Assembly: GCA_020051175.1 (NCBI GenBank)
Contig: JAGVJJ010000011.1
Location: 80,257 to 144,256 of the forward strand
DNA length: 64,000 bases
Direction of reading: 5' to 3'
Origin: Bacteroidia bacterium
GTDB lineage: Bacteria > Bacteroidota > Bacteroidia > 2-12-FULL-35-15
Shown: piece by piece, positions 1 through 6,890 of the stretch
How the letters are laid out: each line of letters starts with the position of its first letter
How positions within the stretch are numbered: position 1 is the first letter of the stretch
The notes under the pieces: generated by a model
The model's input: only the letters and a program-made list of their open reading frames with translations
The model's database searches: none
Told to the model about the DNA's origin: nothing
Position numbers and translations under genes: made by a program

Positions 1-704
1 AGCTTTACGCTAAAATTATTGAAGTTGGAAATTCAAAACTCTCAGAATATGTTATTCATAGAAAATTGGTGTTAGACCTTTTTGATAAATTATTAAAACG
101 AAAGGCAACGGAAAAAGCCGTTCATAGCTTAGTGTTTCCTCTCCAAAAGCTATCAGATGAAATTGGGTTTGAAGATCATAACTTATGGATGCTGGATGAA
201 AAACTTGCGTATCACAAATACTTAGCATCTGATATAACATTTAAGAAAATAAAGGCAACGGCTTCAAAATCAAAAGACAGACCTGACATCTTAATTTTCA
301 ACAAGCCTTTTGCTTTTACTAATGACGAAAAGCCTTATGAATCTGTTGTCCTTATTGAGTTTAAAAGGCCAATGAGGGATGATTACACGGACCAGGAAAA
401 TCCAATCTCGCAAATAAACAAATATGCAAGGGAAATTATTGACGGTGATGCCAAAGATAAGCACGGTCGGGAATTCGATTTCAGAAAAAATACTCCGATA
501 TACGCTTATATAATTTGCGATTTAACAAAGAAATTAAAGGCATTTGCAAAAGATGCTGGATATAAACTTTTACCAAGTGGGGATGGTTATTTTTCATTCA
601 ATGACAACTACAATATGTATATCGAGGTAATGAGCTTCGATAAAGTTATGAAAGATTCAAAGGAAAGGAATAGAGTGCTTTTTGAGAAACTTAACCTAAC
701 CTGA
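1..704 (+). CDS. PD-(D/E)xK nuclease-domain protein, C-terminal part only (5' end beyond the window edge)
   Basis: The frame is open from nt 3 to the stop at 702-704. The motif RPDILIF...VVLIEFKRP...NPISQINKYAREI gives the D..ExK..Q..Y restriction-endonuclease-like core. The next ATG follows after 2 nt. Confidence 0.55.
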   Translation, partial: LYAKIIEVGNSKLSEYVIHRKLVLDLFDKLLKRKATEKAVHSLVFPLQKLSDEIGFEDHNLWMLDEKLAYHKYLASDITFKKIKATASKSKDRPDILIFNKPFAFTNDEKPYESVVLIEFKRPMRDDYTDQENPISQINKYAREIIDGDAKDKHGREFDFRKNTPIYAYIICDLTKKLKAFAKDAGYKLLPSGDGYFSFNDNYNMYIEVMSFDKVMKDSKERNRVLFEKLNLT

Positions 705-706
705 GA

Positions 707-2239
707 ATGAATGAAATATTACGAATAAACGAAAAGGTACTAAAGCATCTCTTAAAATTACGTGAAGCTCACCCTGAGTTATATTTTGTCCCTCGTAAAA
801 TTAATAAGGCACAAAAGTTTGAGCAGGGTTATTGGTTCAGGGGTAATAAGGATTATCTGAATCTTTCCTTTTGGGATGGAGCAGATTGGAAAGAGCAAAT
901 ACACACTATTGGTTTCGTTGTACTAAGTGATAAAACATCGTCAATAGAGTTCTCTGCACAGGATTCTGAAGCGAAAGCACAATTCCTTTCATTGTTGGCA
1001 AATAAATTAGGAGGATTTAAAAAACTTGGGAAAAAGAACAGGTGGCAAAGACTTTATCAGGGGAAGGATTACCTTGCTAATCTTAATCATTTTATCAACA
1101 ATGTTAAACCAATTATTGACAAATTAATCCAAAGCCAAAAACCTGAAGGAATTGAATTGCTCAATGAAGAAATTTTCAAAGGTTATTTAGAAACGGTCAA
1201 TTCCTGGAGAAATCCCCACCTGGAAAATGGACGTGTCAATAAAATAGCGAGGATTTGTTGGAATACTAAAAACTGGAAGATCCCGTCCGGTCCTGAAGGA
1301 AAATCCACTTCAATAGGATCTTATGAATTTGAAAATGGCTTTGGACATGAAGAGTGGATATTTAACAAATCCCGGATAATTGATGGTTACCATTATTCCT
1401 TCTTTGAGCCACTACGCTTGAAATCGGAAAAGCATATCGGTAACTCATACAATATTTCATTGTTTACTATAAATAGCTTAAATAAGAAATATTACGTAGG
1501 GGAAATTAAAAATGCTGAGTGCATTTCCAAAAAGGAATCGGAAAGAATATTTGAAATATACAGGGCAAGTGGATGGATTGAGCAAATGAAAAAGGAAGTA
1601 AAATTAATTGGCGGGAAATGGGAATCTATCATTGCTACAAACCCTGATATTTTCTTTAATGTACGTTTCAAATTCAGTGATGCTTCGCCCGCAGATGAAC
1701 TTATTGAAATTTCGGATGAAGATATTAGTATCACTACACACCGGTTCAAATTACTACCAAAGAAAGCAGACTTTTCTTTCAACTCCCAGGATATAGAAGA
1801 AGATGATGAAAATGACGGTAATGAGAAAAGTACCGGTAAGCGTAAGAAAGTTTATAATGTTGACTGCGAATTTGATCCTTATCACGATATGATGCAAAAC
1901 GCTTTAGTAAAACTCCTTCGTGAATCAGGTGATTATAAGCGAGTGATTATTGAAAAAGGAAGGGTTGATGTAAAAGCTAAAACTAAAGACGATAAATGGC
2001 ATTACTTTGAACTTAAAACCGACAACCCTAAATTAAGCATACGCAAGGCTCTTGGACAAGTTATGGAATATGCTTATTTCCCTGACTTAGAAAAAGCAAC
2101 TGAACTTATTATTGTTTCGGATGCTGAACCTGATACAGATACAATAAAATATCTTGATTTTATTCGTATGAAATTTGATCTGCCGGTTAAATACAGGCAT
2201 TTTGATATTGAAAGAAATTATTTATCAAATGAATACTGA
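707..2239 (+). CDS. Putative reader-nuclease fusion (type IV restriction-like): central 'CWN..W..PSG / GFGHEEW / DGYHY' module plus a C-terminal PD-(D/E)xK domain
   Basis: 510-aa ORF. The C-terminus GRVDVKAK-x9-YFELKT...ALGQVMEYA gives a D-x13-ExK..Q core with an Mrr-cat-like layout. Assignment of the central motif as a DNA reader is from memory only. Confidence 0.5.
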   Translation: MNEILRINEKVLKHLLKLREAHPELYFVPRKINKAQKFEQGYWFRGNKDYLNLSFWDGADWKEQIHTIGFVVLSDKTSSIEFSAQDSEAKAQFLSLLANKLGGFKKLGKKNRWQRLYQGKDYLANLNHFINNVKPIIDKLIQSQKPEGIELLNEEIFKGYLETVNSWRNPHLENGRVNKIARICWNTKNWKIPSGPEGKSTSIGSYEFENGFGHEEWIFNKSRIIDGYHYSFFEPLRLKSEKHIGNSYNISLFTINSLNKKYYVGEIKNAECISKKESERIFEIYRASGWIEQMKKEVKLIGGKWESIIATNPDIFFNVRFKFSDASPADELIEISDEDISITTHRFKLLPKKADFSFNSQDIEEDDENDGNEKSTGKRKKVYNVDCEFDPYHDMMQNALVKLLRESGDYKRVIIEKGRVDVKAKTKDDKWHYFELKTDNPKLSIRKALGQVMEYAYFPDLEKATELIIVSDAEPDTDTIKYLDFIRMKFDLPVKYRHFDIERNYLSNEY

Positions 2240-3365
2240 AGGAATGCGTTTCTCTTACGAAGAATTATACTTTATGTATGGCCAGTACGATTCATTTGTA
2301 CAGCTTCATTTCTGCCATGACACAGAATCTTATAGGATGTTTGATGGTAATTACTTAATGGGTACGTTTAGATTTACCAATCCTGAAAGAATAGAACTTG
2401 AAAAGCTAAGAGGCACAGAGATCCCACGAACGGAAAAACGAATCACATTCATTCCCTCTCAACTGCACTCGTTTTCAGAAGAAATTAATACTTACTTGGA
2501 TCGTGATGGATTTTTGTGTTCTGATATCTGTTCCGTAAGCCAGGTTAACAGGGAAAGACAGAATCGTTACACTGCGAAAGGAGAAAAGGAAATTCCGGGA
2601 ACGCTTAAAATCAATTTTGATGGAGAAGGATTTTGTGCTGAAAAGGCTCATCTATGGCTTCTGTCGCAAAGAATCAAAAAAGGTTGGCCATTAATAGACT
2701 TTGAAATGAAAGATTACTATGGCTTGAAATTATTTTTCAGTCGGGAGGAAGTAATTGATGTCAAAGATATATATACAAATTTTGAAACACTTGGGCTTTT
2801 GCCGCAGGTAAACATTCGTTATTTAAAAACAAAGTTTTTTATTGATGAGTTGACGGAAGACGAAAATAAAACATTCCAAGAGCTGTTAAGTTTAATTGGC
2901 AAGGAACGTGTAGATACTTTGATGCTCGAATTTCAGAAGGCAACAGAATCAATGAAAGAACTGAAAAACTATGCTGATAAAGTTAAGCTCTTGTATTCTT
3001 GCCTCACAAAATTTGAAGATGAAACGTTAATTGCTGGTGAGTTTCCTGTTTGGTGGGATTTTGAGAGATTTTTGCATATATACATGCGGCATGTTAAAGA
3101 AACCCAGGTTGGTAGCAGAAATGAAGGAAGATCTGTTTTTCAATATGCGTTTCGGAATGTAATGCGTATTATTAAAATTGTACTCGAAAGTATTGAAAGT
3201 GAAATAGTGGAACACTTTAAAAACTCCGTGGACGTATTTGTAAGGAGAGGACGTAGAGCTGTATATTATGATGGACATTATTACCGAGTGGAAATAGAAT
3301 CCAACGGTAGATTGTTAACGTTTCATCCTTATAATGATGATAGAGAGAGAAATGCGGATAATTAA
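2229..3365 (+). CDS. Hypothetical protein (378 aa), third gene of the coupled module
   Basis: The ATG at 2229 (MNTEGMRF) overlaps the upstream stop by 11 nt. No motif recognised. Confidence 0.55.
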   Translation: MNTEGMRFSYEELYFMYGQYDSFVQLHFCHDTESYRMFDGNYLMGTFRFTNPERIELEKLRGTEIPRTEKRITFIPSQLHSFSEEINTYLDRDGFLCSDICSVSQVNRERQNRYTAKGEKEIPGTLKINFDGEGFCAEKAHLWLLSQRIKKGWPLIDFEMKDYYGLKLFFSREEVIDVKDIYTNFETLGLLPQVNIRYLKTKFFIDELTEDENKTFQELLSLIGKERVDTLMLEFQKATESMKELKNYADKVKLLYSCLTKFEDETLIAGEFPVWWDFERFLHIYMRHVKETQVGSRNEGRSVFQYAFRNVMRIIKIVLESIESEIVEHFKNSVDVFVRRGRRAVYYDGHYYRVEIESNGRLLTFHPYNDDRERNADN

Positions 3366-3368
3366 CTT

Positions 3369-3740
3369 TTACACTTCAATCCACTCACAATAATCTGCAA
3401 GGTCAGCTAAATGAATACGGCCATAGGGAACCGATGAGTAATATCCCTGCTGTGCAAAGCGATTTTTCCACATCTTAAAATACTCATCACGTTCTTTGAT
3501 GGAATTGAATGGCGGCACACCAATACGAATGCTGAAACCATCAGGAGAAATAACATCGTATTTTTTCTTTTTAGCAGTGGCTCCCTTCTTTGATGGTTCT
3601 TTCTTTTCAGGAAAAGAGTATTCAATTTTAAATCTACCTTTAACGGGTGTCATGGTAGCTTTCCCACCTCGGTCTTTAATTTTTTGCAAATGGATTTCAG
3701 CTACTTTTTTGCTGCTGTGTGTTTTTGTGTAAGTTTTCAT
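3369..3740 (-). CDS. Hypothetical basic protein (123 aa), last gene of the minus-strand operon
   Basis: ORF lies 18 nt downstream of the preceding gene. It has a K-rich linker and a C-terminal 'QGYYSSVPYGRIHLADL' segment. No family recognised. Confidence 0.5.
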   Translation of the reverse strand: MKTYTKTHSSKKVAEIHLQKIKDRGGKATMTPVKGRFKIEYSFPEKKEPSKKGATAKKKKYDVISPDGFSIRIGVPPFNSIKERDEYFKMWKNRFAQQGYYSSVPYGRIHLADLADYCEWIEV

Positions 3741-3758
3741 GGTATATGGTTTTTGTTT

Positions 3759-4670
3759 TTATGCTGCTTTTGCTGTGTTTAATTTTTCGGTAGCAATAGG
3801 ACTTTGATAATTTACTTCGTGATACCGGATAAGTTCACTAATGAGTTTTACAACCACTTCATTTCGGGTTTTATAGATCAGCTTACCGTAGAAATCCCGC
3901 TCCATCATCATTCTGCGGATCATTCCGTTTTCCTCTGTGTCTAAGTATTTTTTGCAGGCCCGTATATAGGCTTGCACACTGCATCCCCGGAGCTTCAGCT
4001 TACGCATGTTCACGTAAACAAAAAACCGGATGTTACCAATGAGATATTGTTCTTCAACAATGATCGTTGCAATACGGACCAGGAAGTAGTTTGGAATCCG
4101 GTTACGATACCGAGTAACATCATCCACCTGTTTGTGCAGGCGTAACCAGGTACAGTTCTGAAATTCGGTTGTAGTGATCTTCGCAATGGACTGGTGTGAG
4201 ATCATAATATCCAATCCATGATGACGGTTAGTGGTAAGCAATCCAACAATGGTTTGCCCTTTTGCACCTGTCATGTATTTGTCCAGGTCTTCCAGCACCA
4301 GCAGGCCATCAACAAACTGTTTCACCATGCGCTCTACCATATCTCGCTTTTCTTCAATGGACATGGTTTCACCACAGCGGGTGAGCGGACGTATTCTCCT
4401 TGCACGGATCTGCTTTAAATCACGGATGTATTCGGGATCAACGGTGATGTAACATTCGTAATCATCATCGTTCACATCGAAAATTAAAACCTTGCGGCCT
4501 TTCCTGCCAATGGCAGGCTGATCCCGCATGTAGTTTTCAATTTCTAAAACGTTACGAAAGGTTTTACCAACGCCAGTCTCTCCGCAAACCAGCATGAGCA
4601 TTGGCTGGCGCTCGTCCTGCTTTTGAACGAGAACGATCCCCTGAAATTTTGGCTGTTCTGTTGCTGACAT
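3759..4670 (-). CDS. P-loop NTPase, Zot-like
   Basis: Walker A is LVCGETGVGKTF and Walker B-like is LLVLEDLDKY. 'TTNRHHGLDIMISHQS' resembles the Zot-family RH.G.D motif (from memory). No TM segment seen. Confidence 0.6.
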   Translation of the reverse strand: MSATEQPKFQGIVLVQKQDERQPMLMLVCGETGVGKTFRNVLEIENYMRDQPAIGRKGRKVLIFDVNDDDYECYITVDPEYIRDLKQIRARRIRPLTRCGETMSIEEKRDMVERMVKQFVDGLLVLEDLDKYMTGAKGQTIVGLLTTNRHHGLDIMISHQSIAKITTTEFQNCTWLRLHKQVDDVTRYRNRIPNYFLVRIATIIVEEQYLIGNIRFFVYVNMRKLKLRGCSVQAYIRACKKYLDTEENGMIRRMMMERDFYGKLIYKTRNEVVVKLISELIRYHEVNYQSPIATEKLNTAKAA

Positions 4671-6140: not shown

Positions 6141-6890
6141 TTAGTCAGGTACAACAAAAATTTTATAACAAGTATCATATTTCCCCTTGTTCAGGCAGAA
6201 TTTTCCTACCAAAAGCCTTCTTGCCCCTAACTGGCCTTTAAATCCCCTTTTCGTTAGTTCTCCGGGCAGGATCGTGTCCTTTTTATCTGCCAGCAGCGCT
6301 TCCAGTATTTCTTCGTCTGAAGGCTCTATTTGAGGTTCCAGTTCTTGTACCGGCTCCGGTTCGGGGTCAGTTTGTTCTTCTGTTACCGGTTCTTCCGGCT
6401 GGTCCATATCGGCTATGGGCTGTTCTTCTGCTTTTTCCTCAGAAACCGGCTGCTCAGAAACAGGTTCTTCAATTGGTTTTTCTTTCTCTGCAACAGGCTG
6501 TTCTTCTACCTTTTCTTCAGTAACCGGTTGCTCAGATGCAGGCTCCTCAATGGGTTCTTCTACAACAAGTTCTTCGATCACCGGTTCCTCTTTTACTTCT
6601 TCGGGAGCGGGATCTGTAACCTGTTCCTGTACTTCAGGCTCCGGTTCTTCTTCCTCGTCATTGTTTTCCAGTTGCCCCTCGAAAAATTCTTCAAGATCTT
6701 CATCCAACTCATCCGACAGCGTTTCGAGTTTATTTAGCAGCTTTTCCCGGTCTTCATCAGTGGTATGTTCAAGATCTTCTTTAAGTTCTTCAAAACCTTT
6801 AATGCGTTTGTAAAGCATTTTCGGGAGGGTCTTATAATCAATGTTATTGTTCTCCAGGAATTTTTCGTGTGTGAATTGTTCTGTCTTCAT
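6141..6890 (-). CDS. Hyper-acidic P/E/Q-rich protein (249 aa) with an in-frame 26-aa tandem repeat
   Basis: A 78-bp direct duplication at 6418-6573 encodes PIEEP[AV]SEQPV[TS]EEK[VA]EEQP... twice. Confidence 0.55.
   Translation of the reverse strand: MKTEQFTHEKFLENNNIDYKTLPKMLYKRIKGFEELKEDLEHTTDEDREKLLNKLETLSDELDEDLEEFFEGQLENNDEEEEPEPEVQEQVTDPAPEEVKEEPVIEELVVEEPIEEPASEQPVTEEKVEEQPVAEKEKPIEEPVSEQPVSEEKAEEQPIADMDQPEEPVTEEQTDPEPEPVQELEPQIEPSDEEILEALLADKKDTILPGELTKRGFKGQLGARRLLVGKFCLNKGKYDTCYKIFVVPD

Follow-up and report, generated by a model that had tools for sequence, protein, structure and literature searches.

The window analysed here, 64,000 nucleotides (nt) from a Bacteroidia bacterium (positions 80257-144256 of contig C26 in a 117-contig genome), begins inside a gene array carried by a phage-like element. 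A first-pass annotation had described the part of this array inside the window, open reading frames ORF1, ORF2 and ORF3, as one module of unrecognised architecture. We favour another reading, to which we assign a probability of about 0.75: the array consists of independent genes of anti-phage type, assembled by recombination and stacked in a defence hotspot, and they are not subunits of one machine. We conclude this because the same slot holds shuffled combinations of genes in sister elements. The single-module claim does not survive the comparison, as each of the three genes occurs without the others in nearly all genomes and settings. The accompanying claim, that the genes are mobile-element cargo in a defence context, is borne out by the slot and by the sister elements. 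Any novelty is confined to ORF2 and ORF3, ORF1 being assigned below to a known, validated class.

Gene content of a variable cargo slot

When the 10 kb preceding the window are included (locus L001, whose coordinates equal window coordinates plus 10000), five co-directional genes are found on the plus strand, in the order AbiEi, AbiEii, ORF1, ORF2 and ORF3. The first four are separated by gaps of 20, 23 and 2 nt, and ORF2 and ORF3 either overlap by 11 nt or lie 4 nt apart, depending on the start of ORF3. On both flanks the array is bordered by minus-strand genes of the phage-like element, a Bacteroidota element of about 40 kb. The array occupies a variable slot in this element, between a conserved gene of 289 amino acids (aa) and the 123-aa and Zot-like genes.

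Gene order in the array and variability of the hotspot are direct observations. Where the present array has AbiE-ORF1-ORF2-ORF3, sister elements have AbiE, an ORF1 of 98% identity and a caspase-like gene (L014), ATPase_2, a 139-aa gene and ORF3 (L015), ATPase_2, ORF2 and ORF3 (L056), or AbiE and ORF3 (L057). The Zot-like flank is present in 16 other loci at 79-99% identity and always adjoins a variable slot, which measures 2.9-9.3 kb in these 16 further loci. Among slot proteins, PADLOC recognises PDC-S27, PDC-S01, other AbiE pairs, a type IIG restriction-modification (R-M) enzyme (2e-250), TmtA (1e-152), IetA and a caspase; Pfam adds DO-GTPase1/2, GAP1-N1, GASH, SEFIR and Peptidase_S8, IetA being paired with a Peptidase_S8 protein. 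Known systems (AbiE, type IIG R-M, Tiamat, IetA, PDC-S27) are found across some 20 versions of the slot. By guilt by association, the slot is thereby a place to look for new defence genes, in a phylum where defence against phages has received little study. The element family has been missed by virus catalogues, and no IMG/VR viral contig contains a relative of its Zot-like gene.

Independence of the three genes is likewise observed directly. Among 400 other Bacteroidota genomes, an ORF1-like gene was found in 11, an ORF2-like gene in 14 and an ORF3-like gene in three. These three sets overlap in a single genome, in which an ORF1-like gene and a protein that resembles ORF2 in the nuclease tail only lie 5 kb apart. 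In about 30 loci that we inspected, ORF1, ORF2 and ORF3 were almost never together, and a check of neighbourhood conservation returned one recurring adjacency, ORF2-ORF3, seen once, in the close relative L056.

This distribution bears on the possibility that a new multi-component system is built from ORF1, ORF2 and ORF3, perhaps together with AbiE, and combines a GHKL ATPase-nuclease, a reader-nuclease and an accessory protein. The junctions are indeed tight (ORF1 and ORF2 are 2 nt apart; ORF2 and ORF3 overlap by 11 nt or are 4 nt apart), a search for internal terminators gave none, and all three genes belong to unnamed or poorly annotated families. Nevertheless, we regard such a system as very improbable: the genes do not co-occur in the 400 genomes or in the inspected loci, sister elements place a caspase-like gene after ORF1 and put ORF3 directly behind AbiE or ATPase_2, relatives of ORF1 are often solitary among housekeeping genes, and the VcSduA-type protein to which ORF1 is compared below acts as a single gene (PMC12137116). 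For annotation, the lesson is that genes under tight translational coupling in a mobile cargo slot need not make up a single system.

The junctions themselves were correctly described before. The ORF listing and direct reading place the ORF1 stop codon (TGA, 702-704) 2 nt before the ORF2 start (ATG, 707), with ORF1 open at the window edge, and the ORF2 stop (TGA, 2237-2239) overlaps by 11 nt an ORF3 frame opening with an in-frame ATG at 2229. An alternative ORF3 ATG lies at 2244, 4 nt past the ORF2 stop, and the family alignment (43 members) suggests that it may be the true start, because nearly all homologues begin (MNFSYEE) at the residue matching ORF3 M6. The coupling of ORF2 to ORF3 is tight whichever start holds.

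It could be argued that a two-gene unit exists at least in ORF2 and ORF3, which would then be a nuclease and its partner, toxin or regulator and would travel together in this lineage of elements. The pair recurs in L056 with a 2-nt gap behind a different upstream gene, and ORF3, where present, is always the last gene of the slot. L056 is, however, a close relative (86% identity) and may hold one inherited block, while ORF3 is found without ORF2 in L015, L057, L011, L013 and L037-L039 and ORF2 without ORF3 in L002-L007 and L028, the genome sets being disjoint. A two-gene unit is in our opinion unlikely.

The virus-like nature of the carrier raises a further question, namely whether the genes serve the element itself, by degrading host or competitor DNA, by superinfection exclusion or by counter-defence, or, for ORF3, by element maintenance. 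A cultured Riemerella phage does carry an ORF1 homologue, and ORF3 has no assigned function. But the same slot holds classical defence systems in sister elements, and homologues of all three genes also reside in chromosomal defence islands, R-M operons and the cargo of integrative and conjugative elements (ICEs). ORF2 and ORF3 are absent from INPHARED (50,697 phage records), and ORF3 is absent from PLSDB plasmids. Service to the element in place of host protection is thus very unlikely; prophage-borne defence and superinfection exclusion are, besides, largely equivalent in practice. We therefore retain the reading of stacked, independent defence-type genes.

The head of the array is a recognisable AbiE system, consisting of an AbiEi antitoxin/regulator gene (PADLOC AbiEi, 1.6e-80; Pfam DUF6577, 3.7e-74) and an AbiEii nucleotidyltransferase gene (PADLOC AbiEii, 2.1e-135; Pfam PF08843, 3.4e-20). 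The three-gene framing of the first-pass annotation missed this pair, which precedes ORF1 outside the stretch it was shown. The likely true start of AbiEi is M44 of a 286-aa ORF. Directly 5´ of this start lies a perfect palindrome with 18-bp arms, ACAAAATATTGTCAATAT and ATATTGACAATATTTTGT (L001 6844-6897; window -3156 to -3103), followed by a TATATTTG box. Judged by its sequence and position, the palindrome together with TATATTTG is a plausible candidate for an autoregulated AbiEi operator/promoter serving all five genes, so that the whole array would probably be transcribed from an AbiEi-controlled promoter. A second inverted repeat, ATAATTGGCCGTAA ... TTACGGCCAATTAT, marks the left edge of the cargo slot (L001 ~6719-6765; window ~-3281 to -3235); it could be a terminator of the upstream minus-strand genes or a recombination boundary.

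At its right edge the slot ends in a convergent junction (3363-3371), where the ORF3 stop (TAA, 3363-3365) and the stop of the 123-aa gene on the opposite strand (3369-3371, also TAA) are 3 nt apart. As had been described, no terminator-like hairpin lies between the two stops. The conserved element genes that follow, on the minus strand at 3369-4670, are the 123-aa gene and a 303-aa Zot/AAA-like ATPase gene, identified by a Zot match (E 1.8e-4). The corresponding genes are 12 nt apart in L014 and 18 nt apart in L056; in L015 and L057 the last slot gene overlaps a 179-aa gene by 4 nt.

This 178-179-aa gene (MKPPL..DFQTPP..; L015 9119-9658, L057 6135-6674, L046 11306-11842) has a motif suggestive of a methyltransferase. 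It sits at the right edge of the slot, where it overlaps the ORF3 stop by 4 nt, and is not found in the window. Versions of the hotspot were seen in L014, L015, L040-L048, L053, L056 and L057, and they hold several unannotated genes as well. L040 (JAUXSJ010000295.1) is labelled as a Parachlamydiaceae metagenome-assembled genome; its element genes, AbiE included, are 98-99% identical to those of the present element, and the contig is probably mis-binned. Its cargo differs and consists of a gene for a 682-aa protein with a GHKL N-box-like motif, followed by genes of 344, 885 and 344 aa.

ORF1, a GHKL-type protein with a nuclease-like tail

The window contains the C-terminal 233 codons of ORF1 (3-704, plus strand). 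The complete protein has 656 aa, its ATG lying 1266 nt upstream of window base 1 (L001 8734). It had been suspected that the decisive part of ORF1 lies upstream; indeed, the 1.27 kb 5´ of the window encode a GHKL ATPase N-terminus. Conservation was read from 41 relatives of 33-55% identity. GHKL motifs I-III show no variation at N29, D75xGxG79 and G101xG103, and almost none at E25 and G98. HATPase_c is matched by 26 of the 41 relatives and HATPase_c_3 by 17, the match of ORF1 itself to HATPase_c being weak (E 5.6e-4) and below the Pfam cut-off.

The tail displays an E-D-ExK pattern, in which D518 (285-287) and E542xK544 (357-359 and 363-365) are invariant and E489, Q560 and Y564 nearly invariant. 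Motifs quoted earlier for ORF1 and ORF2 are thus real, and invariant or nearly so across divergent relatives. A few relatives of ORF1 weakly match three PD-(D/E)xK families (HSDR_N, VRR_NUC and SduA_C). The earlier statement that the tails of both ORF1 and ORF2 are PD-(D/E)xK nucleases holds for ORF1 in a qualified form, by virtue of the invariant motifs, of these weak matches and of the published description of paraMORC3. Comparisons by hhalign gave no relationship between the ORF1 and ORF2 tails, nor with the C-terminal domain of ORF3.

The paraMORC3 proteins combine GHKL and S5 domains with a C-terminal restriction endonuclease-fold domain bearing E-D-ExK; they often stand alone and are widespread among Proteobacteria and Bacteroidetes (Iyer, Abhiman & Aravind 2008, PMC2292703). 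A subsequent classification placed them within Shedu, as type I-D (Gu et al. 2023, bioRxiv 10.1101/2023.08.10.552793). One of them, VcSduA of Vibrio cholerae, is a validated single-gene defence whose protection is abolished by E27A and K557A (Adams et al. 2025, PMC12137116). A homologue of ORF1 on a V. fluvialis plasmid aligns over its full length (33% identity, E 7e-119) and carries E27 and K556, equivalent to the catalytic-type residues E25 and K544 of ORF1. Since this homologue has the equivalent residues, ORF1 and VcSduA are very probably members of one family. Its architecture corresponds to the paraMORC3/GHKL-Shedu class (type I-D, VcSduA-type), a membership that we infer from sequence and that the Shedu models do not match. 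The resemblance of the tail to the C-termini of GHKL/MORC-type ATPase-nuclease proteins, which had been pointed out before, is substantiated by the upstream GHKL domain and the fit to paraMORC3, and the statement that no named defence system is matched is wrong for ORF1, whose class is named and experimentally validated. If ORF1 behaves as this family does, a dimeric ATPase clamp would gate its own nuclease to cut phage DNA.

The family is large. An exhaustive search at E <= 0.001 retrieves 2,898 cluster representatives (clustering at 50% identity), the best 150 of which align over essentially full length. Current Shedu models miss this family of about 2,900 clusters, and ORF1 extends the VcSduA-type class to Bacteroidota proviruses. 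An ORF1-like gene occurs sporadically, in 12 of 401 Bacteroidota genomes (our own included), and homologues are present on 59 plasmids, mostly of Proteobacteria and Actinobacteria. Relatives have no consistent neighbour: they lie in an island with type I R-M, GmrSD, PIN_12 and AbiGi, in another island, or alone among housekeeping genes.

Two other assignments of ORF1 were rejected. It is not Tiamat, as it lacks the long DUF3684 core; two weak matches to TmtA were all that PADLOC returned for the 41 relatives. Nor does it form a two-gene system with a variable downstream effector: the downstream gene is PIN_12, caspase-like, of unknown type or ORF2, and many relatives have no same-strand neighbour at all.

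Two homologues deserve mention in their own right. The cultured Bacteroidota (Riemerella) phage vB_RanS_PJN03 (ON245412.1, 40034-42049) encodes a full-length ORF1 homologue (30% identity, E 2e-64) annotated as 'N-acetylmuramoyl-L-alanine amidase', probably a mis-annotation. On the V. fluvialis IncC plasmid (NZ_AP028130.1, 333355-347355; L062), a type I R-M operon that encodes an AAA ATPase in addition lies upstream of a gene for a 'Shedu immune nuclease family protein', which is followed by the overlapping ORF1 homologue, annotated as 'ATP-binding protein'; these may be two Shedu-type genes in tandem.

ORF2 and ORF3, two uncatalogued families

ORF2 encodes 510 aa and belongs to a family of at least 359 members of about this length, all hypothetical. 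Pfam finds no domain in the query and 41 relatives, except for PDDEXK_9 in some tails, and NCBIfam has no match for ORF1, ORF2 or ORF3. Single-sequence and profile searches against PDB sequences gave nothing useful for ORF2. Its AlphaFold2 model, with a predicted local distance difference test score (pLDDT) of 87.7, and the conservation pattern among the 41 relatives delimit three parts, which are described in turn. Homologies of these domains are observed; biochemical activities here, as for every gene of the array, and the defence phenotype are predicted from sequence.

The N-terminal domain (residues 1-173; 707-1225, plus strand) matches positions 1-225 of the 584-position PADLOC PtuA1 profile (E 3.7e-31). 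The same domain heads a PtuA-like AAA_21/AAA_15 ATPase (L024), a McrB-like AAA_5 protein followed by McrC (L025), and another McrB-like protein, in which an EVE domain comes next and McrC lies downstream (L026). In hhalign, residues 9-173 are aligned with a probability of 97% (E 2.8e-11), and the alignment ends where the EVE domain of L026 starts.

The central domain (residues 178-350; 1238-1756, plus strand) is Trp-rich and represents a candidate DNA or modification sensor. In the 41 relatives W185, W190, P193, G195, G213, E215, E216, W217, Y230, H243 and W290 are invariant. The domain corresponds to residues 3-171 of an 'HNH endonuclease' from a V. gigantis plasmid (WP_102392639.1; 38% identity, E 7e-39), the HNH domain of which is closest to VcaM4I, an EVE-HNH modification-dependent enzyme (6yex, 2e-21). 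Because this HNH protein starts with it, the central domain holds the reader position in two independent nuclease architectures, as far as sequence comparison can tell. An earlier impression, that the centre of ORF2 resembles reader modules of McrB/HNH-type enzymes, is thereby confirmed for the HNH enzymes by the centre itself, and for McrB proteins by the N-terminal domain that heads them.

The C-terminal domain (residues 390-510; 1874-2236, plus strand) is a predicted PD-(D/E)xK nuclease, as had been proposed. Invariant residues in the 41 relatives are E416, D421 (1967-1969), E435xK437 (2009-2011 and 2015-2017), Q451 and E454, and the predicted secondary structure is the canonical alpha-beta-beta-beta-alpha-beta core. 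The top Foldseek matches in PDB are all PD-(D/E)xK folds (YaeQ, XisH, Card1/Cdn1, NucS and LmuA), with probabilities of 0.93-1.0 and E-values of 4e-3 to 7e-2 among the top 18, and PF08011 (PDDEXK_9) is matched by nine of the 41 relatives.

Fusions of a reader with a nuclease are known from VcaM4I and TspA15I (EVE-HNH), YenY4I (PUA-PD-(D/E)xK) and McaZI (DUF3427-PD-(D/E)xK) (Lutz et al. 2019, PMC6765204; PMC7897488). By its sequence and model, ORF2 would most likely be a restriction nuclease in a single chain, type IV-like (reader-nuclease) in design and with an unnamed sensor. Its two front domains would detect some feature of foreign DNA, in all probability a modified base, and the PD-(D/E)xK tail would then cleave the recognised DNA in type IV fashion. 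ORF2 supplies restriction enzymes with a new sensor module, one that can be tested and that is, if it reads a base modification, a possible epigenetic reagent.

Sensor-type domains of ORF2 are evidently mobile: the central domain is joined to HNH, the N-terminal domain sits on McrB-like and PtuA-like proteins, and the core (central domain plus nuclease) occurs with other N-termini or alone, in proteins of about 350 aa. At four loci the core is embedded in a type I R-M operon, as in HsdR-HsdS-[x]-HsdM. Full-length homologues stand alone in mobile cargo, with GmrSD, NYN and FRG on a relaxase element, beside IS21 and an integrase, and in an Omnitrophota island.

Neither of the two systems that share its head domain accommodates ORF2. 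As Septu PtuA it would lack the P-loop domain; the profile is covered at positions 1-225 of 584 and no PtuB-like gene is adjacent. With McrBC it has the head domain alone in common, there being no AAA_5 domain and no McrC at the locus. A 618-aa protein, P0002 (L056 1690-3546), was also rejected as a new ORF2 architecture, since its gene call fuses a PDC-S27-associated protein of about 100 aa to ORF2; the fusion is likely an annotation artefact or the result of read-through. The same ~100-aa protein also follows a PDC-S27-type ATPase_2 gene in L044, and a homologue is present in the slot of L047.

ORF3 (2229-3365, plus strand; 378 aa, or 373 aa from ATG 2244) was characterised by homologue alignment and an AlphaFold2 model. 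Its 140 homologues are about 375 aa long, all hypothetical and mostly from Bacteroidota; no Pfam, NCBIfam or PADLOC family matches ORF3, and the same holds for 43 members that were scanned as well. The model (pLDDT 90.8, predicted template modelling score 0.85) shows a small alpha/beta N-terminal domain, a long helical middle part and a C-terminal alpha/beta domain. In the latter, a cluster of mostly His, Arg and Tyr residues is conserved (R280, H283, R287, H288, Q305, Y306, R339, R343, Y352 and H366). Foldseek returned nothing significant for ORF3 in PDB (best E 1.7) or BFVD (best E 0.011, probability 0.21), and profile searches against PDB sequences gave nothing for ORF3 or its C-terminal domain.

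We considered the C-terminal domain as a BECR-fold RNase toxin and rejected this assignment: the matches to colicin D are insignificant (PDB, E 3.6, probability 0.03; BFVD, E 0.94, probability 0.06), and there is no Pfam or PDB profile match either. Because of the His/Arg/Tyr cluster, one may speculate that ORF3 is a metal-independent nuclease or an effector of phosphotransferase type, possibly an RNase.

Homologues of ORF3 have no conserved partner. They reside in ICE cargo with a prokaryotic Argonaute (pAgo) gene and a DpnII-MboI-like gene, at the end of a conjugative transposon and, in sister elements, behind AbiE or behind an ATPase_2 (PDC-S27-type) gene. ORF3 thus represents a confidently folded family without structural relatives, recurrently located beside pAgo, AbiE and PDC-S27. 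One homologue (G087:C129:11551-12672) has one in-frame TAA and is a possible pseudogene.

Tentatively, and with more doubt than confidence, we suggest that ORF2 and ORF3 are two uncatalogued single-gene anti-phage families, the former contributing a new sensor of foreign or modified DNA (CWNxxxWxxPSG...GHEEW), the latter an effector of a fold unseen in PDB and BFVD. If so, the ORF2 sensor and EVE could replace each other in enzymes of the HNH and McrB types, and type I R-M operons would have recruited this sensor as well.

Several observations weigh against our interpretation of the array and of its members. The tight coupling, together with the recurrence of ORF2-ORF3 in L056 (86% identity), leaves room for cooperation within this lineage of elements. 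ORF1 was not matched when PF14082 (SduA_C/DUF4263) was searched against its own genome at E <= 10; just one of the 41 relatives matches this family (E 0.036) and none matches the PADLOC Shedu models, and profile searches against PDB sequences gave nothing for ORF1 or its tail. In ORF2 and its 41 relatives the central domain has no similarity to EVE or to any Pfam reader, and it lacks a separate Foldseek match among the matches listed. Comparison by hhalign of its profile with an EVE profile built from 29 sequences gave a probability of 0.1, and recognised modification-sensor domains (EVE, SRA, YTH and ASCH of the PUA superfamily; DUF3427, winged helix, NEco) were not found in ORF2 by Pfam or by hhalign against EVE. 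Finally, the clues to ORF3 come from context alone, and it could have a non-defence role such as counter-defence or element maintenance.

Comparison with known systems

The slot resembles the defence hotspots of prophages and satellites, such as those of P2/P4, in which a fixed position between conserved genes holds different defence systems in each relative. It differs from them in its carrier, an uncatalogued Bacteroidota virus-like element, and in holding ORF2 and ORF3, which lie outside current defence catalogues. The AbiE pair has a palindrome ahead of the AbiEi start, which is what an autoregulated AbiE promoter would be expected to show; here the pair begins a longer array of unrelated defence genes.

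ORF1 agrees with paraMORC3 and VcSduA in its N-terminal GHKL domain with intact motifs, in its length of about 660 aa and in its C-terminal E-D-ExK tail. The stand-alone habit and the sporadic occurrence in Bacteroidota and Proteobacteria, in defence islands and on mobile elements, are also shared. The catalytic-type residues lie at almost identical positions, E25 and K544 in ORF1, E27 and K556 in the Vibrio homologue, and E27 and K557 in VcSduA. In contrast to recognised Shedu proteins, ORF1 and its relatives are missed at useful E-values by the SduA_C/DUF4263 and PADLOC Shedu models, and in contrast to VcSduA, ORF1 sits in an operon behind AbiE on a provirus.

Residues 1-173 of ORF2 are homologous to the N-terminal heads of McrBC and Septu PtuA, from which ORF2 differs by having no NTPase domain and no McrC or PtuB partner. 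With the type IV reader-nuclease fusions it shares the single chain, the sensor-type domain or domains at the N-terminus, the PD-(D/E)xK nuclease at the C-terminus and a conserved core rich in aromatic residues. Its central domain swaps to an HNH nuclease whose nearest solved relative is the HNH domain of VcaM4I, and relatives of ORF2, like the McaZI group, are found in defence islands and beside methyltransferases. ORF2 departs from these fusions in that its sensor is not recognisably PUA, EVE, SRA, YTH or DUF3427, in its extra N-terminal domain, otherwise borne by McrB and PtuA, and in the placement of its core within type I R-M operons, a setting that is uncommon for modification-dependent restriction endonucleases of the PUA type.

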